From the IMG/VR virus record IMGVR_UViG_3300045988_081534: a DNA stretch of 17,976 bases. The stretch is one strand, 5' to 3'. Positions 859 to 17,160 of this stretch are shown here, piece after piece. The DNA comes from a virus. Positions within the stretch are counted from its first letter, which is position 1, and each line of letters opens with the position of its first letter. The notes under the pieces were generated by a model. That model was not told the origin of the DNA. It did no database searches and saw nothing but the letters and a program-made list of their open reading frames with translations. The position numbers and the translations under genes are program-made.

Positions 859-888
859 AAAAGTAAAGAATAGTAGAGAGGTGATTTT

Positions 889-1032
889 ATGAATTATTCC
901 ACTGTTTCTGTTAGATTAACAGAGGAAGAGAAGAAAGATTTGGAAGTCTTTGCTAAGAGTTGTGATTTAACAATGTCTTAGGTAATTAGAAAGGCTGTTA
1001 AAGAATATATTGAGAAAAATAAAATAGACTAA
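889..1032 (+). CDS. ribbon-helix-helix (CopG/Arc/ParD-like) DNA-binding protein, 47 aa, contains one in-frame TAG (979-981) read as sense
   Basis: MNYSTVSVRLTEEEKKDLEVFAKSCDLTMS-x-VIRKAVKEYIEKNKID: beta-strand then helix pattern typical of RHH repressors; SD GAGAGGTG; TAG sits where RHH proteins carry E/Q/R before the IR.A helix; stop TAA. Confidence 0.7.
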
Positions 1033-2243: not shown

Positions 2244-2400
2244 TCAAATTAAAAAAAATAGGAAGATAAGAGAGAGTAAGGATATAAGAAGAGAGAGATA
2301 GAGAGATCTAATAAAGATGGATAGAAAAAAATAATAATAGAGTTTTAGTAAGAATAATAGAAAAAAAATAATAGAAATTGATAAAATAGGGAAGAGGTGC
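2244..2400. repeat. purine-rich (AG) low-complexity tract
   Basis: aggaagataagagagagtaaggatataagaagagagagatagagag...; the minus-strand ORF 2244..2438 is a low-complexity translation of this tract. Confidence 0.5.
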
Positions 2401-2477
2401 CGATCGGGCCTAGGTACAACCATCACAACACTCGTCACAACGATTGTAAACCTAGCCTTCCGCGATTATAATATATA

Positions 2478-2520
2478 TAAAAAAAGAGAGAAGCTACAAT
2501 ACTTCTCTCCTTTAATCTTT
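2478..2520 (-). terminator. rho-independent terminator for the 2530..2973 gene
   Basis: stem agagagaag/cttctctc (2485-2493/2502-2509), followed on the minus strand by a T7 run. Confidence 0.6.
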
Positions 2521-2529
2521 TTCCTCTTG

Positions 2530-2973
2530 TTACTTCAAATGTCTCAAAAACTCCATGATATTGTCCTCATCAGTCTTAGCCTTATTCATACTACCTGCAA
2601 GAGCATCAGAAATAGAGTCAACAGCAATGTCAATTACTTCATCAAGACTCTTTGCATTGACTACTCGAGCGGAAGTCTTAGCAGTTACAGTCATAGCCTG
2701 CATAAACTGCTTAATATCATTTGCTGTCCACTTAGGATTGCTCTTGCTATAAACCAGCGCAGCTACACGACCAACGTCATCCTCAGTGAGAGATAAATCA
2801 TCAACATTGCCATAAAAAGTAGACTCAATCTCATCCAGAAGAATATCTCGTTCATAGTCTGCGGCGTTAGCCTCGGAGATTCTATTCATAGCATCAGTAA
2901 ATGCCTTTGCAATCTCCTCCTGAGTAGAACCATTCTGCATTGCATCACGAATCATAATCTCATAACTATTCAT
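2530..2973 (-). CDS. acidic hypothetical protein, 147 aa (candidate DNA-mimic/anti-restriction type early protein; function unproven)
   Basis: uninterrupted ORF, roughly one quarter D/E residues, no recognisable domain; no SD directly upstream; TCGACA-17-TATAAT promoter candidate at 3043-3077. Confidence 0.6.
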   Translation of the reverse strand: MNSYEIMIRDAMQNGSTQEEIAKAFTDAMNRISEANAADYERDILLDEIESTFYGNVDDLSLTEDDVGRVAALVYSKSNPKWTANDIKQFMQAMTVTAKTSARVVNAKSLDEVIDIAVDSISDALAGSMNKAKTDEDNIMEFLRHLK

Positions 2974-3042
2974 AATAAGTTCTTTTAGTTAGAAAAAGCG
3001 TTATGATGCTTCTTAAACTAAAATCCTCCTTTTCTTTATCTT

Positions 3043-3077
3043 ATGTATATATTATATTATATTTTTTATATATTGTC
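3043..3077 (-). promoter_or_regulatory. candidate promoter TCGACA-17-TATAAT for the acidic protein gene; TGTCGAA (Spo0A-box-like) heptamer at 3071-3077 followed by CCGATCGG
   Basis: read from sequence on the minus strand: ggttcgacaatatataaaaaatataatataat. Confidence 0.35.
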
Positions 3078-3710
3078 GAACCGATCGGGTCTAGATAAAA
3101 AGATCGCTTTAACGGAATCCCGCGGAAAAGATTTTTCCTTTTCAAATAGTTAGCAACATCTTTGCTATTGTTTGCTGTATCTTTAATGGTTTTAATTCTG
3201 TGAATATCAAGAAATTTTGAGAAAAACGAGGCATTTTTTGCTTATTTTTAAGTAAATTTGTTAGAAAAACGCGCATTTTTGCAAGATTTTAGAGGTTTTT
3301 CGTTATATTTTGCGATAACAAGAGGTAAAAGATTGCGGGCCGATCGGTTTATCTAGCTAAAATCTCTATTTTTGAGCTATTTTTATCATAAAATCGTGTT
3401 AAACCGATCGGTTCCGCGAAAGAAATCTCTGGTCGTATTTGTTTTTCATAGCTATATCTTTGCTATTGCTAGTTGTATTTTAGAAAGTTTTGGTACTGTG
3501 AATACTTGACAATTTTAAGATTTTTATTATAAAAAATTGGACGAGAGAGCCAATATTGCTGGACCGATCGGGGCTAGATAAAGGAAGAAGTAAAGTAGGG
3601 CCGATCGGTGTTTGGAAGAGGGCGTTATGAATTTTGGGAAAATTGCTATGAAGTTGCGTTATGGCCAAGTTGCTATGAAAATTTTGCGCTATGGTCCGAT
3701 CGGGGAAATT
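3078..3710. repeat. noncoding repeat-rich region: 6 CCGATCGG palindromes (plus one at 2401), composite CCGATCGG-g(g/t)CTAGATAAA motif in both orientations, ~140-bp imperfect direct repeats (about 3078-3220 vs 3400-3540), tandem ttgctatgaa..ttgcg.tatgg units
   Basis: CCGATCGG at 3082,3338,3404,3563,3601,3697; ctttgctattg...ctgtgaata units at 3150-3215 and 3452-3520; gaaaaacg.g.catttttgc twice (3210-3235, 3262-3285). Confidence 0.5.
3507..3540 (+). promoter_or_regulatory. candidate rightward promoter TTGACA-16-TATAAA feeding a ~240-nt region that ends at the bidirectional terminator 3757-3785
   Basis: cttgacaattttaagatttttattataaaaaa; a degenerate copy of the same unit lies at 3190-3215. Confidence 0.35.
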
Positions 3711-3737
3711 CGGGCCGAGTCGCCCGCGACCGGCCCG
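3711..3737. other. pure-GC nested palindrome cgggccg-a-gtcgc-ccg-gcgac-cggcccg
   Basis: 7-bp outer arms plus 5-bp inner arms; same class of GC palindrome recurs at 5503,6896,7782,9434,10867,12560. Confidence 0.5.
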
Positions 3738-3756
3738 CTCAAAATTTTGCATAAAA

Positions 3757-3785
3757 AAATCTCCCCATAAGGGGAGATTTTTCTT
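3757..3785. terminator. bidirectional rho-independent terminator (atctcccc-ataa-ggggagat with A-run on one side, T-run on the other)
   Basis: 3759-3778 hairpin; ends the minus-strand gene 3785..4135 and any plus-strand transcript from 3507-3540. Confidence 0.65.
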
Positions 3786-4135
3786 TAGTTGAGAATTATT
3801 GGATATGCCTTGCGAATAACCACCGTAACCATGGCCGGGGGAGTGTCGCACAAGAAACGATCATTTCTGATAAAACGACCAATTCCCATATTCTGCCACA
3901 AAGTCCGGTTTACATCCTCGTATCGTAGGGTATTATACTTGGAAAGTTTGATATGCCAATCATAGATAAAGGAACCATCTTCCGGCATGGTGTAATCTGG
4001 CGCCCGCTTATAATTTCTCGTATGCTCTGCGGCTCTGCGTTCAAGGTCATTTGTCGTACCAATCTTGAGAATATAGCGCCCCTTTTTGTCGATATAATGT
4101 CCGACATATAGGAACTCTTTTCCCCTTGTCTGCAA
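3785..4135 (-). CDS. T5orf172 / GIY-YIG-like domain protein
   Basis: FLYVGHYIDKKGRYILKIGTTNDLERRAAEH...P...E matches the YVY...KIG.T....R..E motif of T5orf172 (DUF4357/Mug113) GIY-YIG-related domains; start is TTG in the track (start uncertain); stop TAA. Confidence 0.65.
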   Translation of the reverse strand: MQTRGKEFLYVGHYIDKKGRYILKIGTTNDLERRAAEHTRNYKRAPDYTMPEDGSFIYDWHIKLSKYNTLRYEDVNRTLWQNMGIGRFIRNDRFLCDTPPAMVTVVIRKAYPIILN

Positions 4136-4191
4136 ACTAACTATAACTTGCCTCTTTTCTGGTAGGGCCGGGGTAGGCCGACCCTACCCCG

Positions 4192-4509
4192 TTATTTCTT
4201 CGGCTTACGCTTTTGCACAAGCGTCAACTCGAAACTATCCCCACCAATAGAAAACGCAATCTGTCTTTCCTTGTTAGTAATAGACAAGTCAGCGATAGAG
4301 AATTGACTGTTTTTTTCCAAAAACTCTGCCAATTCCGCAATTATACCGCCTTTCGTGGCGTTTGGCTTGCGTTGCCGTGTAGTGAACTTATATGCGGTTG
4401 GCTGTTTGCGCGTTCCAGCATGGGCAAACTTTTGAGCGATTTTCGCCTTTTCTGGCGGTAAATCGTATTCAGTCTTTTTATCAGCCTCTACCGCCTTATC
4501 ATAGGCCAA
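4192..4509 (-). CDS. hypothetical basic protein, about 105 aa, TTG start
   Basis: GAGGAGG SD 8 nt upstream of TTG at 4509; no in-frame ATG upstream before a TAA; K/R-rich C-terminus; hairpin ggggtagg/cctacccc (4170-4190) directly after the stop. Confidence 0.55.
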   Translation of the reverse strand: MAYDKAVEADKKTEYDLPPEKAKIAQKFAHAGTRKQPTAYKFTTRQRKPNATKGGIIAELAEFLEKNSQFSIADLSITNKERQIAFSIGGDSFELTLVQKRKPKK

Positions 4510-4647
4510 TAAATCTGCCTCCTCTTCCGGCGTTAATTGCAGGGCTTTATACCTTGCAATCCGTTCAGCGTCACTAATGCGACTGGATATAATATCACCC
4601 CCATATTATAAGTTAGGGCGGGGATTTTCACCCCGCCCTATACGGGG

Positions 4648-5049
4648 TTACGCCATCTTAAAGAGGGACTTGCCCTTCTTCTCCGTGCAGACTACTCGAC
4701 CATCGAGTTTCAACTGCCGCACAAGAGCGGCGACCTTCTGGTTAGAATAGGCCGTCAGATCAGGAATAGCCTTAAAAATTTCCGTGCAGGTCACGCCATC
4801 GGTATCGGCGTCCAGACCAGCCAGATACTCCATAATCTGCTCCTTAAAGTTTTCGTTCTCCTGCTGGGTGGGAGTCAGCTTCTTGTCACCGCTGGAGCTA
4901 TTCTTCTTACGCAGAAGCTCCAGCTCATGGTCAATGATAGTAATGGCCACCTCGATGGTAGTGCCATACTTTACCTCGCCGTCAGTCAAGAGGGCCTTAA
5001 TGTCCTCAAAACGCTGGGCCTTGGTAATGCGGATTTTCTTCTCGTCCAT
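4648..5049 (-). CDS. hypothetical protein with C-terminal winged-helix-like segment; served by three tandem promoters
   Basis: likely start is the 4th Met (MDEKK...) with AAAGGA 8 nt upstream; TEIFKAIPDLTAYSNQKVAALVRQLKLDGRVV resembles a wH recognition unit; stop TAA followed by hairpin agggcgggg/ccccgccct (4613-4638). Confidence 0.6.
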   Translation of the reverse strand: MDEKKIRITKAQRFEDIKALLTDGEVKYGTTIEVAITIIDHELELLRKKNSSSGDKKLTPTQQENENFKEQIMEYLAGLDADTDGVTCTEIFKAIPDLTAYSNQKVAALVRQLKLDGRVVCTEKKGKSLFKMA

Positions 5050-5097
5050 AATATACATCCTTTCTGGTTTTTAGGACTGTCCTTGTCCTTTGATTAT

Positions 5098-5126
5098 ATT
5101 GTACCACACTATTTGGTACTTGTCAA
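5098..5126 (-). promoter_or_regulatory. promoter P3: TTGACA-17-TGgTACAAT (extended -10)
   Basis: minus strand cctcttgacaagtaccaaatagtgtggtacaatataatc; -35 at 5121-5126, -10 at 5098-5103. Confidence 0.55.
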
Positions 5127-5192
5127 GAGGTTTTTCAAACTTTTTTCAAGAACTTTTGCTCTTTACTTGTTTGCCCTCTCAACCTCCCTTAT

Positions 5193-5221
5193 AGTGTAAC
5201 ACACTTTGGAAAGTTTGTCAA
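5193..5221 (-). promoter_or_regulatory. promoter P2: TTGACA-17-TACACT
   Basis: minus strand gggcttgacaaactttccaaagtgtgttacactataagg. Confidence 0.4.
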
Positions 5222-5269
5222 GCCCTTTTTATTTAATTTTCAAGGTGCATTGCCTTGTTTTCTGTACTT

Positions 5270-5298
5270 ATTATAGCACATCTTCAAAGGCTTGTCAA
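5270..5298 (-). promoter_or_regulatory. promoter P1: TTGACA-17-TATAAT (perfect consensus)
   Basis: minus strand ctcttgacaagcctttgaagatgtgctataataagtac. Confidence 0.55.
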
Positions 5299-5403
5299 GA
5301 GATTCTTGAAAGATTTTTGAGAAATTCGCTGTCGCTGTCTGCCGTTCGTCTCTCTCACTTTCTGAATGTATTTTACCACAAGCAAAAGCAGATTGCAAGC
5401 GTC

Positions 5404-5529
5404 AAATTGCACAAAAAATCGGAATTTTGGGAGAGAGTTTTTGTGCAAAATTCTGCACAAAAACGGGACGAAATTTTTGTGCAACATTACCATTGAAAAA
5501 TTCGGCCCGCGTCAGCCATCCGCGGGCCG
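5404..5529. promoter_or_regulatory. control module upstream of P1-P3: two inverted repeats ATTGCACAAAAA...TTTTTGTGCAA (5404-5452, 5453-5486) and GC palindrome cggcccgcg-N9-cgcgggccg (5503-5529)
   Basis: read from sequence; same TTGCACAA/TTGTGCAA arrangement recurs at 6841,7727,9380,10809,12513. Confidence 0.45.
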
Positions 5530-5554
5530 TCGACCTTTTAGATATAAAAAAAAT

Positions 5555-5576
5555 AAGAGGGCTGTAAAGCCCTCTT
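5555..5576 (-). terminator. rho-independent terminator aagagggc-tgtaaa-gccctctt followed (minus strand) by a T8 run
   Basis: stop codon of 5575..5760 lies inside the 3-prime arm; near-identical copies at 6949-6968 and 7840-7859. Confidence 0.6.
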
Positions 5577-5760
5577 AAATATCAATCATATAACTATAAA
5601 CCATATCCCAAAGCGGCATATCATCCAGAAGGATATTTACAGTCAAAAGTCCGGTTTCTGTCGGCCCATCAACAAACCATCCCAGCCGCTGCATAAGGTG
5701 AATAACCTCATAGACATAATCGGGGTCAAGATGGTTAGTGGTAAACTGTCTTGAAAACAT
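5575..5760 (-). CDS. hypothetical protein, 61 aa
   Basis: SD AAAGGAAAAG upstream of ATG; start lies just after hairpin cgggcggggc/gcccctacccg (5777-5801) that contains the stop codon of the upstream exonuclease gene. Confidence 0.5.
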   Translation of the reverse strand: MFSRQFTTNHLDPDYVYEVIHLMQRLGWFVDGPTETGLLTVNILLDDMPLWDMVYSYMIDI

Positions 5761-5787
5761 TTCTTTTCCTTTCTATCGGGCGGGGCT

Positions 5788-6579
5788 TTAAGCCCCTACC
5801 CGAATTGTCGGATTATTTTTCAAACTTGCGGAAAGTTGACGCTGAAAATCTGTCATAGGCGGAAACTCTCTTTTATTCTCATACAGGGCCTTTCTCATGG
5901 GCTTATGCTGACGCATACAATACCACATGATTTCCGCCTCAATCAGAACATCCTCAAGCCCCGTATGACTTTCTTCAAAATCGGTATTGCCAGAGATAAA
6001 CCGCCACACGATTTCCGCAGTCTTGCGGGGGACACCATTAGCCTGGACATATCCGTTTTCCTGACAGAATTTCTTATAAGTGGGCATATTGCAGATAACA
6101 TCCTGTGTCATCTTCATAATATCCCAAATCTCCACGCTGTCAAACGGGAACCAATAACGCCACTTGGAGTAGGTCACATAACGCTGTGTAACTCTCAAGG
6201 CATTATCGTCAAATCTGGCATTATAAGCCGCAACTTCCTTAATGCCGTATCGCTCAATGGTATTGAGCATAACTTGGCGGATTTCATAAGTGGTAGCCAT
6301 TTTACGAGTGCCGGCCCGCAGTTCCTCAATATAGCGGGGAATTTTCCAATTATAATAAGCAGTCCGCATGAGATCCCGCTCATCGTTGAAAATGTCCCTA
6401 TTTACAAAACTGGCAGTTTCATAAATATTGCCCTTGGTATCCACTACCGCCCATCCGCAATCATAGACAAGAACGCAACTCATATCCATGCGGGCTTTGC
6501 CGTTTTCGTCAGTTTCAGTCAGTGTGTTAGCAGTTTCAGTATCAACCACCAAAACATAGTGTCTACGCTTATCAATCAT
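5788..6579 (-). CDS. DEDDh (DnaQ-like) 3-prime to 5-prime exonuclease, 263 aa
   Basis: ExoI YVLVVDTETAN, ExoII AAYNARFDDNAL, ExoIII HTGLEDVLIEAEIMW; SD AAGGAAG 9 nt upstream; the 250-aa plus-strand ORF 5836..6588 is its antisense shadow. Confidence 0.75.
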   Translation of the reverse strand: MIDKRRHYVLVVDTETANTLTETDENGKARMDMSCVLVYDCGWAVVDTKGNIYETASFVNRDIFNDERDLMRTAYYNWKIPRYIEELRAGTRKMATTYEIRQVMLNTIERYGIKEVAAYNARFDDNALRVTQRYVTYSKWRYWFPFDSVEIWDIMKMTQDVICNMPTYKKFCQENGYVQANGVPRKTAEIVWRFISGNTDFEESHTGLEDVLIEAEIMWYCMRQHKPMRKALYENKREFPPMTDFQRQLSASLKNNPTIRVGA

Positions 6580-6611
6580 AATCTTTGACTTCCTTTCCTC
6601 TTGTTGAGTTT

Positions 6612-6640
6612 ATTATAGCACATACCATGCTTGATGTCAA
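6612..6640 (-). promoter_or_regulatory. perfect consensus promoter TTGACA-17-TATAAT for the exonuclease gene
   Basis: minus strand cttgacatcaagcatggtatgtgctataat. Confidence 0.6.
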
Positions 6641-6804
6641 GAGGAAAAGGAAATTTTTATTGCGATTTACTGCAAGCTACTGGGCATTAGAACGGCCTAT
6701 TCTAACGGCGTTCACTCGACTTACGACACAATATAAATTTACTTCCTTTACTTTCTAAGAGTTCGCGACCTCTTGATTTCTTGGCCTTCCCCTCTTGACA
6801 AATA

Positions 6805-6922
6805 TATAATACCATACTTTCGGGATAATTACAAGATGGCAAATTGCACAAAATTTGCAAGCCAAAATTGTGCAACATCGACAAAAACAAAAACTCGGCT
6901 CGCCGCGTGCGCCAGCGAGCCG
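6805..6922 (-). promoter_or_regulatory. control module: promoter TTGTAA-17-TATTAT (6805-6833), inverted repeat AAATTGCACAAAA...AAAATTGTGCAAC (6841-6876), GC palindrome cggctcgc-N11-gcgagccg (6896-6922); no intact gene follows this promoter
   Basis: read from sequence; downstream of the promoter there is an AAGGAAG SD (about 6736-6742 on the minus strand) but no start codon. Confidence 0.35.
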
Positions 6923-6948
6923 CCCAAACGATATTAAAGAGTAAAAAT

Positions 6949-6968
6949 AAGAGGGCCGAAGCCCTCTT
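6949..6968 (-). terminator. rho-independent terminator aagagggc-cgaa-gccctctt
   Basis: identical stem-loop to 7840-7859; stop of 6967..7155 inside the stem. Confidence 0.6.
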
Positions 6969-7155
6969 AATATCCAAGATATTCTTTATTGATAATCTCG
7001 TCAAGCCAATAGCTCAAATCTTCAAGCGAAATATCGTCATCAATTTCATTGTCGGCCATAGCCTGATCAATTTGACCAATGAGAATGGACGCATTTTTCA
7101 ATACTTGTCGCTCTTCCTCGCTGAGGATAAGCCTATTAACCTTTCTATTCTTCAT
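6967..7155 (-). CDS. hypothetical acidic protein, 62 aa
   Basis: SD AAGGAAG 8 nt upstream; clean ORF to TAA. Confidence 0.5.
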   Translation of the reverse strand: MKNRKVNRLILSEEERQVLKNASILIGQIDQAMADNEIDDDISLEDLSYWLDEIINKEYLGY

Positions 7156-7195
7156 TTACAAAACTTCCTTTCTTATTTTAAGATTGACTGGTGGA

Positions 7196-7660
7196 TTACT
7201 CTACCAGTCGCCATAAGGCCGTAGGTAAATCTTCATGTGGCTCGATTGTTTCCCCTAAATGCCAGCCATCCCGCACACTTTTATTATCATCAATCAAAAT
7301 GAAATTGCTAATTCCCGGCTCAAAGTGTTTCCGCACACAATTTGCTTTTGTTGTGCCATATTCCACAAGGTGGACTTTATGTGCGGGGAAGTTGTATTTT
7401 GCAAGCCAAGTGCGCTTTGCGTCACGAACAGCAGTTTTATATGAGTTAGAACTGTCTTTTGCAAGCCAACTGATAACCCGAATTTCCCAGCCCTGCTCAA
7501 TGAGTTTATTAAGAACGGTATTCAATTCTTCTATATCGCAAAGAGGTTTGGCGACTGTATATGGATAGGGATTTTCATTCATTAAATCTTTTAACCAATC
7601 ATCCACGCCGTACAGGTCAGCGATTGTTCCATCCATATCAAAGCAGAGCATCTTTTTCAT
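7196..7660 (-). CDS. HAD-superfamily 5-prime(3-prime)-deoxyribonucleotidase (NT5C-like)
   Basis: motif I CFDMDGTIADL at N-terminus, C-terminal FILIDDN motif; overall NT5C-like spacing; SD AAGGAAG. Confidence 0.7.
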   Translation of the reverse strand: MKKMLCFDMDGTIADLYGVDDWLKDLMNENPYPYTVAKPLCDIEELNTVLNKLIEQGWEIRVISWLAKDSSNSYKTAVRDAKRTWLAKYNFPAHKVHLVEYGTTKANCVRKHFEPGISNFILIDDNKSVRDGWHLGETIEPHEDLPTALWRLVE

Positions 7661-7692
7661 TTTGATTTACTTCCTTTCTTTAGGTTGATTAA

Positions 7693-7808
7693 AGTATATC
7701 AGATTTCGGGATAGAAAACAAGAGGCAAACTGCACAAAATTTCGGCTGGAAAATTGTGCAACTTCTACAAAAGAGAAAATTCGGCGCGCCACGCACGTTA
7801 GCGCGCCG
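7693..7808 (-). promoter_or_regulatory. control module: promoter TTGTTT-17-TATACT (7693-7721), inverted repeat AAACTGCACAAAAT...AAAATTGTGCAAC (7727-7762), GC palindrome cggcgcgc-N11-gcgcgccg (7782-7808)
   Basis: read from sequence; spacer contains tatcccgaaa as in the 6805-6833 promoter. Confidence 0.4.
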
Positions 7809-7839
7809 CCGAGAAGCCTATTCAAAAAATGGGATAAAA

Positions 7840-7859
7840 AAGAGGGCCGAAGCCCTCTT
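7840..7859 (-). terminator. rho-independent terminator aagagggc-cgaa-gccctctt
   Basis: hairpin plus T-run on the minus strand immediately after the SpoVT-like stop. Confidence 0.6.
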
Positions 7860-8321
7860 TTAACTTTCACATATATTTGCAAGAAATCTTGCAGAAAGTT
7901 TAACCATGTCATGGACAGATTCTTCGTTATTGCTATTTTTATAGCAAATAAAACCAACCTGGTCGCCATTCACAAGAATTGGTGTAATAAACATACTTTC
8001 CCATTTTGTCGCCGAACTGCGAATATCAATCCAGTCATCGGGAACTCTTGTAATTCCAAAGGAACGCGGCCCGCATAAAATTCCATCATTGTCAAAAATA
8101 GCCGCGGCGATTCCGTTAGATGAAAGGGCATTTTGCATTTGTTTAGCGTAAGAGGAAAATTCTCCCATTATAGAATATTTCTTAAAAACTACGCCGCCAT
8201 CTTCTTCAAGAAAAATCTCTAATGGGTCGCCTTCTCTAATATGAAGGTTTCTACGGATTTCCTTTGGAATTACTATCCGGCCCAAATCATCAATACGGCG
8301 CACAATTCCAGTAGCTTTCAT
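7860..8321 (-). CDS. spoVT: SpoVT-like regulator: AbrB-type swapped-hairpin N-domain plus GAF-like C-domain
   Basis: MKATGIVRRIDDLGRIVIPKEIRRNLHIREGDPLEIFLEEDGGVVFKKY is near-canonical AbrB/SpoVT N-domain; C-terminus ...GFICYKNSNNEESVHDMVKLSARFLANICES parallels the SpoVT GAF tail; 153 aa. Confidence 0.8.
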   Translation of the reverse strand: MKATGIVRRIDDLGRIVIPKEIRRNLHIREGDPLEIFLEEDGGVVFKKYSIMGEFSSYAKQMQNALSSNGIAAAIFDNDGILCGPRSFGITRVPDDWIDIRSSATKWESMFITPILVNGDQVGFICYKNSNNEESVHDMVKLSARFLANICES

Positions 8322-8331
8322 TTTTATCTGC

Positions 8332-8362
8332 GGGAGTGCAAGATTTATAGTCTTGCACTCCC
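8332..8362 (-). promoter_or_regulatory. 12-bp-stem hairpin gggagtgcaaga/tcttgcactccc 10 nt upstream of the SpoVT-like start codon; only SD-like GGGAG lies inside the stem
   Basis: read from sequence; sister hairpin at 10422-10452. Confidence 0.45.
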
Positions 8363-8373
8363 TTCCTCCCTTC

Positions 8374-8760
8374 TTAATCCAGTTCTTTCAACATCCGTTC
8401 GAGGTCAGCTTTAGTACCACCCAACTCAAGCGTAAGAATAATTTCCGTTACGGCATTTTTCTCCCAGTCGCTAACTTCCCGCATGGCCTTTTTCTTCTCG
8501 TTCTCCATAGCGGGGTAAATACAATCCTGGCAAGCCTCTACCAGCCGGTCATTATATCTGCGGAAACTCATCCCCTTGTTTTTAACCTCCGAAAGAAGTT
8601 CGTCGTTAAGGGCTTTTACCGCCTGCTTAACTTTCTCCTGCATGATTTTACACTCTGTCTCATAAGCGGAAAAGGTTTCATGGACAGCCTGCCTTTTGAT
8701 TTCAGCCTTTACTCCAACTTCCTTTTCAATATACTCCCGAACAACCTTACTAACACGCAT
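8374..8760 (-). CDS. hypothetical protein, about 128 aa
   Basis: ATG with AAGGAAG 10 nt upstream (track start TTG two codons earlier); charged, helical-looking; conserved Cys pair CQDC. Confidence 0.55.
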   Translation of the reverse strand: MRVSKVVREYIEKEVGVKAEIKRQAVHETFSAYETECKIMQEKVKQAVKALNDELLSEVKNKGMSFRRYNDRLVEACQDCIYPAMENEKKKAMREVSDWEKNAVTEIILTLELGGTKADLERMLKELD

Positions 8761-8822
8761 TTCCAAAACTTCCTTTCTTAATTTTAATTTTTATTTATCG
8801 GGGTCGCCCCTTCCATGGTCTT

Positions 8823-8851
8823 ATTGTACCATAGTTGGGGCGATTTGTCAA
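8823..8851 (-). promoter_or_regulatory. promoter TTGACA-17-TGgTACAAT
   Basis: minus strand ggttgacaaatcgccccaactatggtacaataag. Confidence 0.5.
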
Positions 8852-8855
8852 CCCC

Positions 8856-9008
8856 TTACATCAAAGTTTTTGCAAGATATGCGAACATTAAGATTTCCGC
8901 CGCAAACATGATTTCAAGTCCTATGCAATCTTTTTCAATAGCGGCTACAAATTGCCATACCAGACACAGAACAAAAGCAATCAGAATTATCATGGTAAAA
9001 GTTGTCAT
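8856..9008 (-). CDS. small membrane protein, 50 aa
   Basis: internal start MTTFTMIILIAFVLCLVWQFVAA... with GGGGTGA 5 nt upstream, 4 nt after the TGA stop of the upstream gene; two hydrophobic helices. Confidence 0.5.
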   Translation of the reverse strand: MTTFTMIILIAFVLCLVWQFVAAIEKDCIGLEIMFAAEILMFAYLAKTLM

Positions 9009-9012
9009 ATAC

Positions 9013-9270
9013 TCACCCCGCAAAGGAAACTTCCGCAAAGTTAATATTGAAACGCTCCCATTCGCTTTCCATGCCTAACATCATATCATGGAAAAGGTCA
9101 TCACGATTTTTATATCCATCTTCTTCCAGAATAGCCTCCCATTCTCCATCGTCATATTGATTTTCCAGATAATCCAACGCAGACTTGCGGGCGGCAATGG
9201 TATTAGACGCTACACAGATAGGTTTATCGTCGTATCCATCCGTAACTAAAATCATTTTCTTTTCTTCCAT
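9013..9270 (-). CDS. hypothetical acidic protein, 85 aa
   Basis: SD AAAGGAAAG; clean ORF ending TGA. Confidence 0.55.
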   Translation of the reverse strand: MEEKKMILVTDGYDDKPICVASNTIAARKSALDYLENQYDDGEWEAILEEDGYKNRDDLFHDMMLGMESEWERFNINFAEVSFAG

Positions 9271-9322
9271 GATTTTTCTTTCCTTTCTTTCGAGGTGTTT
9301 CTATCTCCCTCTTTCTGATAAT

Positions 9323-9460
9323 AATATACCACAGGCAAATCAGAAAGTCAAGCGATTTTAGGAAAAAATTCTTCGTCAGATTGCACAACAATTCGAGTCT
9401 AAAATTGTGCAAATTGCCTCTTGATAAAAAATTCCGGCCGCGCCTATAGTGCACGGCCGG
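9323..9460 (-). promoter_or_regulatory. control module: promoter TTGACT-17-TGgTATATT (9323-9351), inverted repeat ATTGCACAAC...AATTGTGCAA with TTCGTCA heptamer (9372-9412), GC palindrome ccggccg-N13-cggccgg (9434-9460)
   Basis: read from sequence. Confidence 0.45.
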
Positions 9461-9478
9461 GCGATCGAATAAAAAAAG

Positions 9479-9500
9479 AACCTCCTGAATTTCAGGAGGT
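9479..9500 (-). terminator. rho-independent terminator acctcctgaa-t-ttcaggaggt preceded by A8 (T-run on the minus strand)
   Basis: 10-bp stem; downstream of the AbrB-like gene. Confidence 0.6.
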
Positions 9501-9542
9501 CATTAATTTCTGCATACCAACAACTCCCTTTCTTTTGAGAAG

Positions 9543-9776
9543 TCAATCGGCATTTTCAACAATCTTTAATCCGTTTGCTTGGATAATTTTCATAGCTTCT
9601 TCAAGCGAGGAATCAACCGATCCGCAGTCGATACAGATATATTTTCTGCCATCTTTTACCATAGTAGTAAAATAGTATTCTTGGCCAGAAACAAGGCCCA
9701 TCTACTCTCGCAGTCTTACTGGAATCATGATACGCCCACTTGAATCTAATTTCCTTGAGAAAGTAGTTTCTTGCAT
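9543..9776 (-). CDS. AbrB/MazE-family swapped-hairpin DNA-binding protein, 77 aa, with one in-frame TAG (9702-9704) read as sense
   Basis: MQETTFSRKLDSSGRIMIPVRLRE-x-MGLVSGQEYYFTTMVKDGRKYICID fits the AbrB N-domain pattern (GRI.IP...R..LG...G......V.DG.I.I) across the TAG; no SD; stop TGA; the plus-strand ORF 9421..9675 overlaps and is rejected. Confidence 0.55.
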
Positions 9777-9864
9777 TTTGATAAATAAATTCTAGTGACC
9801 TAGGCTCGTGCGAAAAACGACTCCATCACGGGAATCGCCGATTTAGAACAATCGGAAGGAACAT

Positions 9865-9981
9865 TTACCACTCGCAAGGCATTTTCTGGCAGAACTGAGA
9901 CATAGGGTAATTTTTACAAGAATCCTAGTTCAAACAGAACTCCAAAATAACCGCGAGTGCTTTCAGCACTTCTAAGGTCAT
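9865..9981 (-). CDS. possible small Cys-rich ORF, 38 aa, one in-frame TAG
   Basis: SD AAAGGAG 8 nt before ATG; MTLEVLKALAVILEFCLN-x-DSCKNYPMSQFCQKMPCEW; weak support. Confidence 0.2.
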
Positions 9982-10014
9982 TAGAAAAACTCCTTTCTTT
10001 ATTTTTCTATAATT

Positions 10015-10072
10015 ATTATAATATATTTTTTTGAAAAAATCAATAGGGCCGGCATTACGCCAGCCCTAATCT
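10015..10072 (-). promoter_or_regulatory. promoter TTGATT-17-TATAAT (10015-10043) preceded by GC hairpin agggctggc-gtaat-gccggccct (about 10050-10072)
   Basis: read from sequence. Confidence 0.4.
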
Positions 10073-10182
10073 CTGTAACCAAACCAGATGGTATTTACCA
10101 ATGTGAAGTAGAACTGTGCCATATCCCTTATTTGTCCAAACAGTGGAACCGATAGGATATGTATGCGGTAAACGCTCAATAC

Positions 10183-10398
10183 TCACTTTAGTTCCACCTC
10201 CTCGAAAGCTCTAATTTTTAGCAGATAATTATATAAGGCTCTATCTTGTTTGTCGCCGGTATTAAAATCAAGAGTACGAACACAGCCGGTAACATTGGAA
10301 TTAAGAGGATGATTCAAACACCAACCAGCCATATTACAAATTGTGTCTCCAAACTCCGCAGATTTTTCTACACTTTCAAATTTAATAACAGCAATCAT
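10183..10398 (-). CDS. hypothetical protein, 71 aa
   Basis: strong SD AGGAGG; preceded by hairpin 10422-10452. Confidence 0.55.
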   Translation of the reverse strand: MIAVIKFESVEKSAEFGDTICNMAGWCLNHPLNSNVTGCVRTLDFNTGDKQDRALYNYLLKIRAFEEVELK

Positions 10399-10421
10399 AT
10401 TTATTCCTCCTTTTTTATCGT

Positions 10422-10452
10422 GGGGAGTGGAGATTTATGGCCTCCACTCCCA
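10422..10452 (-). promoter_or_regulatory. 10-bp-stem hairpin gggagtggag/ctccactccc between two genes, 13 nt upstream of the AGGAGG SD
   Basis: shares GGGAGTG arm and AT-rich loop with the 8332-8362 hairpin. Confidence 0.45.
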
Positions 10453-10461
10453 CAGGTTTTC

Positions 10462-10701
10462 TTAACCATCTACATAAATGATTAGATTGTTGCCTCTTGC
10501 TTGAATACCAGTTACCGGAAGTCCCAGCACCCATTCCTTAGACGCCTCAATGACGTCTCCTCCCAGGGTTATCTTGTGATCAGGTAGCTCATGGTAATGA
10601 GCTTGGGTATTCTCATTGATAATTTCGACCCCTTCCCCGTCAAAGAACATGGTATCTTCTGCGAGCGGAGAAAGCAGACCTGCAATCATTTTCAAAGTCA
10701 T
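10462..10701 (-). CDS. hypothetical protein, 79 aa
   Basis: SD GAAAGGAAG; clean ORF to TAA. Confidence 0.55.
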   Translation of the reverse strand: MTLKMIAGLLSPLAEDTMFFDGEGVEIINENTQAHYHELPDHKITLGGDVIEASKEWVLGLPVTGIQARGNNLIIYVDG

Positions 10702-10755
10702 TTCTTTTACTTCCTTTCAAATTCTTTTTGTGACCTTGCCCCTCTGGACAAGTAT

Positions 10756-10895
10756 ATAATAACACATGACAAGAGGAATGTCAAGTAATTTCGGGAGAAA
10801 ATCTTTCGTCAAATTGCACAGACTTTCGATCATATAATTGTTGAAACTGCCGGATAAATAAAAATTCGGGCCGCGGCGCACGCTGGCGGCCCGGC
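10756..10895 (-). promoter_or_regulatory. control module: promoter TTGACA-17-TATTAT (10756-10784), half-site TTCGTCAAATTGCACAGAC (10809-10825), GC palindrome cgggccgc-N13-gcggcccg (10867-10895)
   Basis: read from sequence. Confidence 0.45.
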
Positions 10896-10926
10896 GAAAA
10901 GTCAATATGGAAAAGTGCATAAAAAT

Positions 10927-10957
10927 GACTGGCAATCTTTGTGCAGATTGCCAGTCA
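10927..10957 (-). terminator. rho-independent terminator gactggcaatc-N9-gattgccagtc preceded by an A-run (T-run on the minus strand)
   Basis: 11-bp stem. Confidence 0.6.
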
Positions 10958-10969
10958 AGTATTATTCCT

Positions 10970-11203
10970 TTACAGCTCCATGGTTTCCATGAGATAGCCC
11001 GTGCCCATCGGCACCTCCCGCAGATTGCTGGGACTTATACGCAACTTATATTTCCTATTGATTTTATTCGCCGCACTTGTCTTATCTCTTGCTTGGACAA
11101 TTACTGGTATATGGAGTTTATTCAGAGTGGGCTTATTAAAACTGAAATATCCCATCTCTCTGCGCTTGCGGCCCATGGCGTCGATATAAGTCCCTCTATA
11201 CAT
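10970..11203 (-). CDS. hypothetical basic protein, 77 aa
   Basis: SD TAGGAGG; clean ORF. Confidence 0.5.
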   Translation of the reverse strand: MYRGTYIDAMGRKRREMGYFSFNKPTLNKLHIPVIVQARDKTSAANKINRKYKLRISPSNLREVPMGTGYLMETMEL

Positions 11204-11216
11204 TTTTTTCCTCCTA

Positions 11217-11369
11217 TTATTTAGTCATGAGAACGAACATATTATATTCGCTGTGCTGTGGGTTTGGCTCACAGTTATCCGCCACTATATCAGCCCAACT
11301 AAGAACTGCCCAGAGTAGGAGAGCGGCACAAATGCCGCCTCCTATCCGCTTAATAATTCTCATTTCCAT
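11217..11369 (-). CDS. small membrane protein, 50 aa; start overlaps the stop of the upstream gene (ATGGAAATGA)
   Basis: MEMRIIKRIGGGICAALLLWAVLSWA... hydrophobic helix; not in the ORF track (below 60 aa). Confidence 0.35.
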   Translation of the reverse strand: MEMRIIKRIGGGICAALLLWAVLSWADIVADNCEPNPQHSEYNMFVLMTK

Positions 11370-11662
11370 TTCTTTGCCTCCTGTTCTTTAACCCATTCAG
11401 TACCGATTGTATCTCCGACCATAGCAACCTTATATTCGTCTTCGCTTGCAATTCTGGTATGCAGATTGCTATTGATAAACTTTCTATTGATATAAGCCCA
11501 GTGTGGCATATAGGCCACTCGCATGGCATTAAAAGCATCCAGGTCTAAGATAATGCCGTCCTCTACCTCTGCGGAACGCACATTCATCTTATACCGCAAA
11601 AGTTTAATAAATTCACGCTTTCTAAAAGTAGGCCCAACGAACCACTTAATATAATTGTTCAT
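11360..11662 (-). CDS. hypothetical protein, 100 aa
   Basis: SD GGGAGAAAGGA; clean ORF. Confidence 0.55.
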   Translation of the reverse strand: MNNYIKWFVGPTFRKREFIKLLRYKMNVRSAEVEDGIILDLDAFNAMRVAYMPHWAYINRKFINSNLHTRIASEDEYKVAMVGDTIGTEWVKEQEAKKWK

Positions 11663-11708
11663 AGTCTTTTATCCTTTCTCCCCGTATAGCCGTTAGGTCA
11701 GCTTCTTT

Positions 11709-11855
11709 TTAATCTACGATTTCTCCACTGGATAAATCCACAATCCAATGATTAGGATTGACTATCTCGTGACTGACCTTCCATCTTGCCATTGAAAGGG
11801 TGGATGGTTCATAATAGCGCATTTTCTCATTGGCTAAAACTTGTAACTGATACAT
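11709..11855 (-). CDS. possible small protein, 48 aa
   Basis: AAGGGG 8 nt before ATG; MYQLQVLANEKMRYYEPSTLSMARWKVSHEIVNPNHWIVDLSSGEIVD. Confidence 0.3.
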   Translation of the reverse strand: MYQLQVLANEKMRYYEPSTLSMARWKVSHEIVNPNHWIVDLSSGEIVD

Positions 11856-11886
11856 ATAGTATGCCCCTTTCTTTTAATTATTATAA

Positions 11887-11918
11887 CCCTGCCTTACCTT
11901 GTGTTTTGCAAGGCAGGG
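11887..11918 (-). other. 9-bp-stem hairpin ccctgcctt/aaggcaggg after the stop of 11930..12304; no T-run
   Basis: read from sequence. Confidence 0.4.
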
Positions 11919-11929
11919 TTTATAAACTG

Positions 11930-12304
11930 TTATCCTCTAATTTCTTCTTCTTGGGTCTTTGTCGCCCAATCAAAAGAGGTACGAACATCGGAAGGTCTGC
12001 GGAATTGCTCTGCTTCGGCCTTTGTCCCGCCTAATGCCATAGCATAGGCTTTCCAGTCAACCGTTCCTTTTGCGGTAGTTTCTTTATATACCACCGCTTT
12101 CGCCTTACCCTGCATTTGTACCGTGCCATATAGATAACTTGTTTTGTCCGTAGCCTTAAAAGCCTTACCTAATCTGGAAAATAGCTCTTTAGCCTTAGCC
12201 TTAGCTGCTTTCTCCGCCGCCTCCGCCGCAGACTTAGCCATCTTAGCGGCCATATACTCCATAATAATGGCTCGATCTTCATTGGTAAAATCAATCTTTT
12301 TCAT
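11930..12304 (-). CDS. hypothetical Ala/Lys-rich protein, about 124 aa
   Basis: start MKKIDF with SD AAAGGGAG; the track ORF extends upstream through the promoter to an unsupported TTG. Confidence 0.55.
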   Translation of the reverse strand: MKKIDFTNEDRAIIMEYMAAKMAKSAAEAAEKAAKAKAKELFSRLGKAFKATDKTSYLYGTVQMQGKAKAVVYKETTAKGTVDWKAYAMALGGTKAEAEQFRRPSDVRTSFDWATKTQEEEIRG

Positions 12305-12356
12305 ACTCTTTTGACTCCCTTTCTTTTTGTGGTGTGGTTCTCTTTTGTTCTGGCTG

Positions 12357-12571
12357 TATTGTATCAAACCTTTAGCAGTTTGTCAATACCTTTTTTGAAA
12401 TTTTTTAATTTTCAAAGTGCCGTGCTTTTGTCTTTGTCCTACTGGACAAGTCCAGTTTACCACCAAAATGTTCACTTGTCAATAGTTTTTTTGAAATTTC
12501 TTTCTCTCTCTTTTGCACAAAATAAATAACATCTTGTTGTGCAGTTTGCATAAACCCTTTACGCGCGCGTA
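12357..12571 (-). promoter_or_regulatory. control module with two tandem promoters (TTGACA-17-TgaTACAAT at 12357-12385; TTGACA-17-TGgTAAACT at 12454-12482), palindrome actggac-aa-gtccagt at 12443-12458, inverted repeat TTTTGCACAAAA...TGTTGTGCAGTTT (12513-12544), GC palindrome tacgcgcgcgta (12560-12571)
   Basis: read from sequence. Confidence 0.45.
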
Positions 12572-12744
12572 TTCCTTTAGGGGCGTGCTTTCTTGCTTTC
12601 GTACTTTAACGAGTGAAAGAGGCCAACTACACTTCAATACTTTACCATGTGAAAGAGGGGCGTGTATTTTGGGAAAAACTGGAAATTTTTTTGTAAAATC
12701 GTTCTGCCACGCCATTTCAAAATCTAAATCGACTTTTCAATCTC

Positions 12745-12785
12745 AATAACGAAAAAGAGAGAAGAACTCACTTCTTCTCTCCGCA
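12745..12785 (-). terminator. rho-independent terminator gagaagaa-ctcac-ttcttctc plus T-run on the minus strand, ending the FolD/PARG/Pth2 operon
   Basis: 8-bp stem; stop codon of 12768..12911 within it. Confidence 0.6.
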
Positions 12786-12911
12786 TTTACACTTCTTTTT
12801 TAAATTATATATAATATGATCTTCTACTTTGTAAATTGGATATAATTCTCCACAGACTGCGCATATATTATAATAATGCTTGCCGTCAAACCATACTAAT
12901 ACTTTATCCAT
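12768..12911 (-). CDS. small zinc-ribbon-like protein, 47 aa
   Basis: MDKVLVWFDGKHYYNICAVCGELYPIYKVEDHIIYNLKKKCKCGEKK with CxxC...CxC; ATG overlaps the stop of the lipoprotein gene (ATGGATAA). Confidence 0.35.
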   Translation of the reverse strand: MDKVLVWFDGKHYYNICAVCGELYPIYKVEDHIIYNLKKKCKCGEKK

Positions 12912-13146
12912 CGTCGGTTGCCTCAAAACTAAAAATCAAATTATATCCATCCTCAGTTTCTATCGTTTCATATCCTTTTAAGATATATCCATCCTCTAGT
13001 TTAATATTAATCGCATCAGATCTCCACATTGTAGGAATATACTCTAGCCTTGGATAACGATTGTTCTCCTCCACGCAAGCAGTCAACAATAGTAAAATCA
13101 AAACTATATTAATTATAAAGCTGATACTTCTTCCCAATTTTGTCAA
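12904..13146 (-). CDS. small secreted lipoprotein, about 80 aa (candidate superinfection-exclusion type)
   Basis: TTG start with GGAGG 9 nt upstream; signal peptide MTKLGRSISFIINIVLILLLLTAC with lipobox LTAC; the track ORF starts at an earlier TTG (13176). Confidence 0.55.
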   Translation of the reverse strand: MTKLGRSISFIINIVLILLLLTACVEENNRYPRLEYIPTMWRSDAINIKLEDGYILKGYETIETEDGYNLIFSFEATDDG

Positions 13147-14298: not shown

Positions 14299-14342
14299 TT
14301 GCAGTTTCCTTTCTTCCGTGCGGTTGGGCAGAAGTGGATAAT

Positions 14343-14522
14343 TTAATTATCCCAATCTTCAAATAAAGTGTGTAAACTATTTGTTTCCGCCGCCAATCTC
14401 TTTAAATATTCTTTAAGAATTTTATTTTCTTTAACTTTAATTGCATAATCGCAAGTATTGTCGCAGTCTGGTGTGTACTACCGACCGAATCTATTATAAC
14501 AATAATCAATACAAGGACACAT
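14343..14522 (-). CDS. possible small Cys-rich protein, 59 aa, one in-frame TAG
   Basis: ATG 1 nt after the TAA of the upstream gene; MCPCIDYCYNRFGR-x-YTPDCDNTCDYAIK...; weak support. Confidence 0.25.
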
Positions 14523-14523
14523 T

Positions 14524-17154: not shown

Positions 17155-17160
17155 TTATAA

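Follow-up and report, generated by a model that had tools for sequence, protein, structure and literature searches.

The sequence studied here, IMGVR_UViG_3300045988_081534, is a stretch of 17,976 nt (the window), in which an island at positions 2,974 to 3,785 lies between two minus-strand genes. It belongs to a widespread, uncultivated family of ~145-kb gut phages (140- to 149-kb genomes) that read TAG as an amino acid, are represented by hundreds of protein clusters in human-gut metagenomes, and probably infect Clostridia; complete 140- to 149-kb contigs of the family include CALCFD010000051.1 and CALWOP010000177.1. We compared the locus across about 50 related, non-identical phage loci. Site conservation was taken from an alignment of 21 islands, down to 53% overall identity, and promoter orientation was tallied over 35 islands. 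No DNA similar to the island was found among GenBank phages. The CCGATCGG motif cluster is missing from phAss-1, which is only distantly related, and the phAss-1 paper says nothing on repeats or promoters (PMC10607447). The matches returned by a literature search for CCGATCGG were, from their titles and abstracts, apparently unrelated or incidental.

The island precedes a conserved early gene (2530..2973, minus strand) encoding an acidic protein of 147 amino acids (pI 4.4), which is modeled as all-helical (pLDDT 82). This protein has no Pfam or PHROG match, and its fold gave no match in the PDB better than E = 0.37, DNA-binding or otherwise. The 5' untranslated region of the gene (2974..3044, minus strand) contains the Shine-Dalgarno sequence AAGGAGG 44 nt from the ATG, with a hairpin of ~40 nt between the two. 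Downstream of the gene, the terminator scan placed a bidirectional intrinsic terminator (2482..2513) at the meeting point of the rightward and leftward gene blocks, and past this terminator is a copy of the palindrome CCGATCGG (2400..2407), whose equivalent in lineage B is gaggtggcCCGATCGG. Lineage B has the same island layout, with an acidic protein just ~20% identical. At the other end of the island, a second bidirectional terminator (3755..3782) closes a T5orf172 gene (3785-4135, minus strand). DNA-binding folds are encoded near the island and kept in both lineages, and three nearby products are candidate binders: a ribbon-helix-helix (RHH) protein of the DUF6290/CopG-like families (870..1013, plus strand, one in-frame TAG, present in both lineages), a basic 105-aa protein (4192-4509), and a conserved early protein whose C-terminal part has a winged-helix fold (4648..5058, minus strand). 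An iteron array (1628-2009) lies beside an initiator gene outside the island, and the region 1220-2009 is a candidate for a classical initiator-plus-iteron origin adjoining it.

Inside the island, the acidic gene is preceded by a proximal promoter that matches the sigma-A-type consensus (TCGACA-17-TATAAT, 3051..3079, minus strand), and a CCGATCGG site followed by a nonconserved CTAGATAAA flank (3081..3099) touches its -35 hexamer. Two 72-nt direct repeats occupy 3151..3222 (with TAGCAA-N5-TTGCTA) and 3449..3520, and between them lies an invariant pair of CCGATCGG sites at 3340 and 3404 (3340..3411), with 12-nt inverted arms and a 48-nt AT-rich spacer that in the L194 sub-lineage holds a consensus plus-strand promoter. 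The end of the second repeat supplies the TTGACA hexamer of a rightward promoter, also a consensus match (TTGACA-16-TATAAA, 3507..3534, plus strand). From its predicted start, a noncoding transcript of ~245 nt (3541..3785, plus strand) would run through two CCGATCGG sites at ~+24 and ~+60 (3564 and 3601; 3564..3608), which are deleted, mutated, or differently spaced among sub-lineages, and through a near-invariant terminal module (3634..3740) to end at the terminator at 3755..3782. The preliminary description had already placed the rightward promoter, this bidirectional terminator, and a GC palindrome (3710-3738) here, and all three are present. Its ~140-bp direct repeats exist as well but are smaller (72 nt ungapped, 72% identity), and the upstream ccgcg stands at different distances in the two copies.

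The island had been described as noncoding, and on sequence grounds it is noncoding in the window and in the family, where it is conserved as such in ~50 loci. Stop codons interrupt every frame between 2989 and 3479, also when TAG is taken as sense, and within that interval no ORF exceeds 91 codons in any frame, TAG as sense included; six-frame translation under either code, standard or TAG-as-sense, yielded no credible ORF, and no tRNAs were found. The weak plus-strand ORF noticed earlier is the only one in the transcript unit, with 52 codons (TTG 3612) or 47 codons (ATG 3627) rather than 57, and was rejected because the ATG is lost in L140 and L159 and the spacers differ by non-multiples of three. 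Inter-motif spacers of 1 to 5 and 5 to 7 nt likewise exclude coding.

Eight exact copies of CCGATCGG occur in the window (2400, 3081, 3340, 3404, 3564, 3601, 3696, and 14089), seven of them within 2400-3703 and every one with a GATC, as had been noted at the outset. Their number departs from a compositional null: dinucleotide-preserving shuffles gave a mean of 0.06 copies, and none of 200 shuffles reached eight. Allowing one mismatch adds just three sites, all outside the island. The confinement to the locus holds family-wide, with 228 sites in the 65.6 kb that surround the acidic gene versus 5 in 253 kb outside, and each island carries five to eight copies. The sites at 3340, 3404, and 3696 are exact in all but one of the 21 aligned islands (L214 has CCGATCTG at 3404). 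Conservation reaches 0.85 in the site columns, against 0.64 in the ±10-nt flanks and 0.66 island-wide; judged from this alignment, purifying selection acts on the 8-bp palindromic core, whereas the flanks, including CTAGATAAA, drift. It is the whole 8-mer that is conserved, beyond GATC alone, a tetramer that is under-represented in the window overall (35 seen versus 57 expected under a Markov model) and has 9 of its 35 copies in 2305-3698. CCGTACGG is an example of a mutant version of CCGATCGG. The site spacings, inspected by hand, show no evident helical phasing. The composite motif reported earlier is present as CCGATCGG-gt/gg-CTAGATAAA at 3081 and 3564 and, inverted, as CCGATCGG-t-TTATCTAG at 3340, but it is not conserved in relatives. 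A second motif recurs in the islands as GCATATGG in sister lineages and as TTGC(G)YTATG(G/A) in the window. Other strong early promoters of the window (6640, 5298, 12386, 10784, and others) have no CCGATCGG site, indicating that the palindrome is not a general early shut-off operator.

The terminal module is composed, in order, of TTTTGGGAAAA, the TTGC(G)YTATG(G/A) repeats, CCGATCGG (3696), GGAAATT, and CGGGCC-N15-GGCCCG (3710-3738). This right-hand ~100 bp is near-invariant between sub-lineages, the rest of the island being just 53 to 78% identical, and conservation falls sharply at both edges of 3634-3740. In CGGGCC-N15-GGCCCG, which sits beside or over a promoter start, the arms are invariant and the spacer is fixed in length and variable in sequence. 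The same features, invariant arms and a fixed-length spacer, recall the p4 sites of phi29 (inverted repeats with a 15-bp spacer in an early/late switch region). The island element differs in that it also resembles the 27-nt GC terminator hairpins found elsewhere in this phage, and may be no more than a derivative of a terminator; nor is a p4-like protein known for the phage. This family of GC inverted repeats was recognized through the terminator scan; on the minus strand, the palindrome has a geometry like that of the terminators at 9460, 7808, 6922, and 10895, which are followed by AATTTTT, whereas the palindrome at 3710-3738 is followed by AATTTCC and then CCGATCGG. Judged by sequence comparison, the island is an old, conserved cis-regulatory region; it is better conserved than the adjacent protein gene, and the locus is the best-conserved noncoding feature of the phage family seen in this analysis.

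The -35 hexamer of the rightward promoter (3507-3534) is kept in the W, L133, L140, and L159 sub-lineages. Its -10 hexamer, TATAAA, ends in A in place of the usually invariant T, and for that reason the automated promoter scan left the promoter unlisted. In sister sub-lineages the proximal minus-strand promoter has TTGGCA or TAGACA as its -35 hexamer, and in the sister lineages the rightward promoter is replaced by two to four leftward consensus promoters in tandem, among which 12/12 consensus matches occur. A strong promoter enters the terminal module from the left in the window lineage and from the right in the sister lineages: 15 islands have only the rightward promoter, 14 only the distal leftward one, and none has both. 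Such a promoter is aimed at the module in 29 of the 35 islands, which makes the plus-strand transcript of ~245 nt plausible. The nonpalindromic parts of the module keep a single orientation although the transcribed strand differs between lineages. Several palindromes are close to these promoters. At 3081 in the window, and also in L147, CCGATCGG abuts a -35 hexamer; it lies between the two hexamers of a 12/12 consensus promoter in L156, L163, L212, and L259, and falls at about +8 to +31 from predicted starts in W, L194, L138, L149, and L200. Positions within -50 to +45 of a strong predicted start account for 21 of 79 sites versus 11.4 expected, an enrichment of ~1.8-fold over uniform placement that is not to be read as a probability, because the sequences are related. 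The best-conserved sites (3340, 3404, and 3696) and the site at 2400 have no recognizable sigma-A promoter adjacent in the window, and across the islands many sites lie away from predicted starts.

There is, in our estimate, about an even chance that the island is a DNA region with multiple operators, bound by a putative protein, that controls early transcription in the vicinity of the acidic gene. Its parts would be the leftward proximal and rightward sigma-A-type promoters, the terminator-type GC hairpins, and the CCGATCGG copies; the palindromes would serve as operators for a sequence-specific dimeric DNA-binding protein, either phage or host encoded. Bound next to, inside, or just downstream of these very strong promoters, and also to either side of the gene, this protein would shut off or time their activity. 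Among the roles proposed in the preliminary description, a bank of regulator-binding sites appears to fit best, as the core is selected, the sites are confined to the locus, and several touch promoters. Sites for the acidic protein itself had also been suggested, but this protein is an unlikely binder, being of pI 4.4, all-helical, and without a structural relative in the PDB. An 8-bp palindrome would suit an RHH dimer, and the conserved RHH protein encoded at 870-1013 may be the one concerned; the conserved winged-helix protein (4648-5058) is an alternative candidate. In the met boxes, 8-bp palindromic operator units arranged in tandem are bound by the ribbon-helix-helix repressor MetJ, and sterically, a protein of this type would readily place one dimer on each 8-bp box. 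The island resembles these arrays in repeating an 8-bp palindrome at or near promoters and in having an RHH protein conserved beside the locus; unlike them, its sites are scattered over 1.3 kb rather than placed in tandem, and its RHH protein is DUF6290/CopG-like, with binding predicted. Very strong early promoters and a small acidic early protein are also shared with Aca-repressed anti-CRISPR promoters and with the T7 A1-A3 promoters that serve gene 0.3 (Ocr), and the palindromes at the island promoters could provide a later shut-off. However, no repressor gene lies within the operon here, the acidic protein has no fold match, and CCGATCGG sites also occur past the end of the gene and well away from promoters.

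The promoter-to-terminator unit could instead make a noncoding RNA as its functional product, namely, in the window, the ~245-nt plus-strand transcript and, in sister lineages, the long 5' leader carried by the mRNA of the acidic gene, with CCGAUCGG, GCAUAUGC, and the GC hairpin acting as RNA elements (stability, protein sponging, or RNA-RNA pairing). We consider this unlikely. The unit does exist in the sequence, as first described, with its -35 hexamer kept in four sub-lineages and a strong promoter directed into the module in most islands; the GC hairpin would stand at the extreme 5' end of the transcript in sister lineages or near its 3' end in the window, and either transcript would read the same motifs, since the conserved motifs are palindromic. 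The palindromes are identical on both RNA strands, which is a counterpoint to the DNA-level reading. The folding z-scores (-2.4 for the plus strand, -5.0 for the minus strand) are, however, driven by the terminator hairpins. RNAalifold, applied to the relatives, gives only an invariant 6-bp outer stem and a 4-bp long-range helix: none of the 10 predicted pairs is changed on both sides, so no pair is compensatory, with a covariation term of +0.1. No Rfam match reaches its gathering score (the best local one is RNAI, with 26.6 bits versus 47). The strand transcribed differs among relatives while nonpalindromic motifs keep their orientation, and the -10 hexamer of the window promoter deviates at its usually invariant base. 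That the promoter is always aimed into the module, from one side or the other, could nevertheless mean that what matters functionally is the act of transcribing the module. It is possible, though again not probable, that the module is a transcription-dependent cis-acting element of a new kind, either an R-loop-primed lytic origin or a decoy (sponge), made of DNA or RNA, that captures a host protein and is tied to the massive early production of an acidic protein acting against the host. A transcription-activated replication element, whether a second (lytic) origin or a helper of the neighboring initiator-plus-iteron origin, for which the adjacent strong promoter would provide an R-loop or primer or open the DNA, seems distinctly unlikely. 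In its favor, a strong promoter is directed at the module from either flank but never from both, and the island is ~1 kb from the initiator-like winged-helix gene and iteron array (1220-2009); the cumulative GC skew has its maximum at ~3600-4000, but this skew tracks transcription direction. Of the iteron half-site CTATGAA, the array has 8 copies and the island 3 (16 in the window versus 3.7 expected), which is suggestive of one protein acting on both; this idea was rejected as it fails in lineage B, whose iterons, GTTTGTA(AA), are absent from the island, and the island motif CATATG is absent from the iteron array. There is also no DnaA box (TTATCTAGC differs from TTATCCACA by three mismatches in direct reading) and no distinct unwinding element visible beside the module.

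Repeated palindromes clustered near a plasmid-like initiator, an iteron array, and an RHH gene would also fit a partition centromere or other nucleoprotein assembly site of a phage-plasmid, like parS/parC clusters. Eubacterium and Oscillospiraceae MAGs include contigs as long as the whole phage (147,780 and 148,971 bp), binned there as separate contigs, and the winged-helix protein (4648-5058) counts TubR among its fold matches, albeit through a generic winged-helix resemblance. This explanation is very doubtful, as ParA, ParM, TubZ, and ParB-type genes were not called by Pfam within 5 to 10 kb of the locus in any lineage, lysogeny or plasmid-maintenance genes were not seen in the window, and the gene served directly by the island encodes the small acidic protein. 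The GC hairpin raises a different view, in which the island is chiefly a mosaic boundary or recombination linker whose conservation stems from repeated cassette exchange at the hairpin instead of from regulation by the palindromes. Hairpin-plus-promoter units, including a homologous one at 10789-10900, flank gene cassettes that vary in presence between relatives; an 882-bp two-gene cassette is present or absent precisely at the hairpin, with a related hairpin bounding its other end, at least five different sequences follow GGCCCG within lineage A alone, and both sides of 3634-3740 show the sharp drop in conservation. The T4-type PeSL (promoter-early stem-loop) is alike in that such units bracket small early cassettes and mark insertion/deletion junctions, and unlike in its sequence and host RNA polymerase context; the island adds CCGATCGG and GCATATGG, conserved motifs that the other units lack. 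Cassette exchange leaves unexplained both the exact CCGATCGG copies far from the junction (3340, 3404, 3081, and 2400) and the absence of CCGATCGG from other hairpin-promoter units, and as the main explanation it is improbable; a boundary role is compatible with a control region and may be an added property. A packaging (pac) site or methylation/restriction target, modeled on P1 pac with its several short GATC-containing repeats (hexamers in P1), is highly improbable. GATC is present in every site and depleted elsewhere in the window, and several assembly contigs end 165 to 1,850 bp beyond the acidic gene. Those ends were rejected as genome termini, because they lie in a hypervariable, low-complexity A-rich stretch (2146-2364) or in iteron repeats and other contigs run through; the locus has varied internal positions in related contigs, the island is away from terminase genes, with none in the window, and the full 8-mer rather than GATC alone is conserved, which sets the island apart from P1 pac. 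For the packaging site and secondary origin suggested in the preliminary description, no positive evidence emerged; the origin candidate (1220-2009) lies next door.

Since the island is better conserved than the adjoining protein gene, it would mark a control point of the phage early program. The locus yields a defined 8-bp site together with three candidate binding proteins, and the small acidic early protein, predicted to be very strongly expressed, is a candidate anti-host factor. The hairpin junctions, in turn, show how small early genes get swapped in this phage family.

The window comes from a phage genome in which TAG is a sense codon (code 15). Two long frames (16039-17154 and 17161 to the end) and a FolD-like gene (14877-15701) are seen only when TAG is left open. 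In-frame TAG codons occur in the FolD-like gene and the two long rightward ORFs (14877-15701, 16039-17976) and also in the small plus-strand genes at 870-1633, including a ribbon-helix-helix (RHH) gene and an initiator-like gene; no suppressor tRNA was found within the window. Genes run rightward at ~870-1633 and leftward at 2530-15700, and a bidirectional terminator (2482-2513, both strands) marks the point where they converge. The island is flanked on the left by the gene for an acidic 147-aa protein (pI 4.4), with its start codon (2973) on the island side, and on the right by a T5orf172-domain gene (3785-4135). Accessory early genes encode an AbrB/SpoVT-type protein (MazE_antitoxin and SpoVT_C), a PARG-like enzyme, and an adjoining 145-aa protein (7860-8321, 13109-14298), and the 263-aa protein at 5788-6579 is kin to Enterococcus phage “exodeoxyribonuclease” genes.

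The preliminary description of the island as non-coding was borne out, as no credible ORF appears in any frame with TAG read as stop or as sense. Its reported clustering of the 8-bp palindrome CCGATCGG is equally clear: the window holds eight copies against 0.06 expected, seven of them at 2400-3703, and both the composite CCGATCGG-CTAGATAAA and the GC palindrome are present in the island. The direct repeat is real, with a length of 72 nt rather than the ~140 bp claimed. The eighth copy (14089-14096) lies within the microbial-type PARG gene (13531-14298), and one related locus, L179, likewise has a site about as far from its own island. Counted over the family, the 65.6 kb surrounding the acidic gene contain 228 sites, and the 253 kb that flank them contain 5.

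Relatives were gathered via the acidic protein, from viral contigs in which paired sites were found, and from metagenomes and genomes matching the pattern TATGG-N1-5-CCGATCGG-N5-7-CGGGCC, yielding ~50 non-identical islands in two main lineages (A and B). Close relatives (88-98% DNA identity) are contigs of 96-146 kb from IMG/VR and human-gut assemblies; homologues of the neighbouring proteins were found on 140-149 kb contigs, two of which are binned in Eubacterium and Oscillospiraceae MAGs. The sole GenBank relative is the distant phAss-1, a member of the “code 15 clade” with a predicted Clostridia host (PMC10607447). Lineage A includes the window, and the islands of its sub-lineages are 97, 93, 78, 71, 69, and 53% identical to that of the window; the acidic protein of lineage B is only ~20% identical, yet it aligns end to end. 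In the orientation of the window, all lineages share a layout of one site past the gene terminator, the acidic gene, 0.5-0.8 kb of non-coding DNA bearing another three to six sites, and a GC inverted repeat. Judged by this comparison, the island is old and conserved.

Among the 21 aligned lineage-A islands, sites 3340, 3404, and 3696 are exact in all, save one base at 3404 in L214, and site 3081 is exact in 17, with its equivalent ~20 bp further right in the L194 group and one base altered in L210; sites 3564 and 3601 come and go. Conservation reaches 0.85 in the site cores, compared with 0.64 in their flanks and 0.66 in the rest of the island, and the CTAGATAAA extension is absent in the L140 sub-lineage. 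Many sites have a second motif on their left, TTGC(G)YTATG(G/A) in the lineage of the window and GCATATGG in lineage B and the L147, L149, and L156 groups. The terminal module (3634-3740), the right-hand end of the island, is alignable across all lineages, with conservation of 0.7-0.99 versus 0.34-0.59 in adjoining sequence; the 6-bp arms of its inverted repeat (CGGGCC/GGCCCG) are invariant, and the spacer between them is constantly 15 nt but variable in sequence.

Minus-strand early genes carry their own TTGACA-17-(TG)TATAAT promoters and 27-nt GC-rich hairpins (CGGnnCGC...GCGnnCCG) followed by AATTTTT (9434-9460, 7782-7808, and 6896-6922, minus strand), which appear to be the standard terminators between these genes. 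Read on the minus strand, the inverted repeat of the island has the geometry of these hairpins, with a degenerate tail, AATTTCC, running into CCGATCGG, and is probably a derivative of the family. Most lineage-A relatives also contain an 882-bp cassette (4355-5236 in L001), whose insertion point coincides exactly with the right edge of the inverted repeat and which has genes of 83 and ~150 aa between two bounding GC hairpins, the far one being a related GGACC-N15-GGTCC; the window lacks it (junction at 3706-3737). Within lineage A, GGCCCG is continued by at least five different sequences. A homologous hairpin-plus-promoter unit at 10789-10900 carries a second copy of aaattCGGGCC-N15-GGCCCG, with AATTTTT and a promoter after it on the minus strand; this unit shares 77% identity with the right end of the relatives' cassette and lacks CCGATCGG. 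The hairpins are therefore also cassette boundaries, as are the PeSL elements of T4-type phages.

The rightward promoter, TTGACA-16-TATAAA, is present as a consensus match at 3507-3534 (plus strand); transcription from it would cross two sites, the repeats, and the inverted repeat before reaching the terminator on the right of the island, which was likewise located (3755-3782). In lineage B and the L147 and L156 groups, a 12/12 consensus promoter just right of the inverted repeat fires leftward through it, and one to three more consensus promoters precede the acidic gene. Of 35 islands, none has both a rightward and a distal leftward promoter: 15 carry the rightward one alone, 14 the distal leftward one alone, and 6 neither. 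The tally covers at least three different rightward and at least five different leftward promoters. The sites abut the -35 hexamer (window and L147; the proximal acidic-gene promoter of the window, at 3079-3051 on the minus strand, is an example), lie in the promoter spacer (L156 group), or fall ~+8 to +31 from predicted starts (several lineages), and the remainder are far from any promoter; 21 of 79 sites lie within -50 to +45 of a strong predicted start, versus 11.4 expected. In the leader of the acidic gene (2974-3044, minus strand), 44 nt separate the Shine-Dalgarno sequence AAGGAGG from the ATG, and a ~40-nt hairpin in this interval may, by analogy with T4 genes 38 and 25, bridge that distance; L140 retains the hairpin with a different apical sequence, and in L159 and L194 the insert is missing and the Shine-Dalgarno sequence is at normal distance.

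The promoter-to-terminator unit had been put forward as a noncoding RNA, and a transcript is indeed plausible, but a structured RNA found no support. Compared with shuffled sequences, the predicted 245-nt RNA has only a moderate folding advantage (z = -2.4); that of the opposite strand is larger (z = -5.0) because of the hairpins. RNAalifold on 18 diverse modules found no compensatory changes and paired nothing beyond the invariant outer stem and a 4-bp helix, and Rfam holds no family for this RNA. The non-palindromic parts of the module hold their orientation while the transcribed strand switches between lineages, and the motif spacers vary (1-5 and 5-7 nt), so we favour an island acting at the DNA level. 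A role of the module at the RNA level or dependent on transcription is possible, since the palindromes would read identically in either RNA and a promoter nearly always faces the module. As for an origin or packaging region, the stretch adjoining the island (1220-2009) is a much better plasmid-like origin candidate, with a rightward winged-helix initiator-like gene (1220-1633, weak HTH_36 match) and, at 1628-2009, some ten palindromic iterons of the form TTTCATAG-N14-CTATGAAA, among them 2.6 copies of a 44-bp unit in tandem. Three copies of CTATGAA, the iteron half-site, lie in the island as well; lineage B iterons differ in sequence (GTTTGTAAA) and are unrelated to the island motifs there. 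No partition or terminase genes were found within reach of the locus in the flanks of the lineages, and contig ends near it coincide with the iterons or with a hypervariable A-rich stretch. The purine-rich low-complexity stretch at 2146-2400 is unalignable even among close relatives, and several assembly contigs break there.

The palindrome also occurs in other arrangements. In one sub-lineage (metagenome loci L156, L163, L172, L212, and L259), the coding sequence of the acidic protein itself contains two CCGATCGG sites separated by 33 bp, and all of these loci except L172 have a further one within the spacer of a 12/12 consensus promoter. Four other viral contigs (L042, L057, L066, and L106), three of which share a metagenome with the closest IMG/VR relatives of the window, carry CCGATCGG-N17/18-CCGATCGG and then a T-run, which looks like a terminator hairpin with the palindrome pair as its stem. 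Five more (L021, L024, L089, L090, and L132) have pairs of AAATTT(A/C)CCGATCGGGAAA 49-50 bp apart with an AT-rich spacer, which in L021 contains a second palindrome; we take this extended site to resemble a Noc or ParB-type half-site arrangement.

The acidic protein, with an all-helical model that has no PDB relative, is an unlikely DNA binder. Three small proteins near the island are conserved in both lineages and are candidate binders: the RHH protein (870-1013; Pfam DUF6290 and RHH_1), a protein whose C-terminal half is modelled as a winged helix (4648-5058), matching PerR, MepR, ArsR, and TubR at 2-3 Å over ~70 residues, and a basic 105-aa protein (4192-4509). A ribbon-helix-helix dimer would suit a 4-bp half-site spacing better than one of the helix-turn-helix type. 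As read from its sequence, the island is a real control region, non-coding and strongly conserved, and its most likely mode of action is the binding of a putative protein, which would recognize CCGATCGG and the companion motifs around strong promoters serving the acidic early gene.
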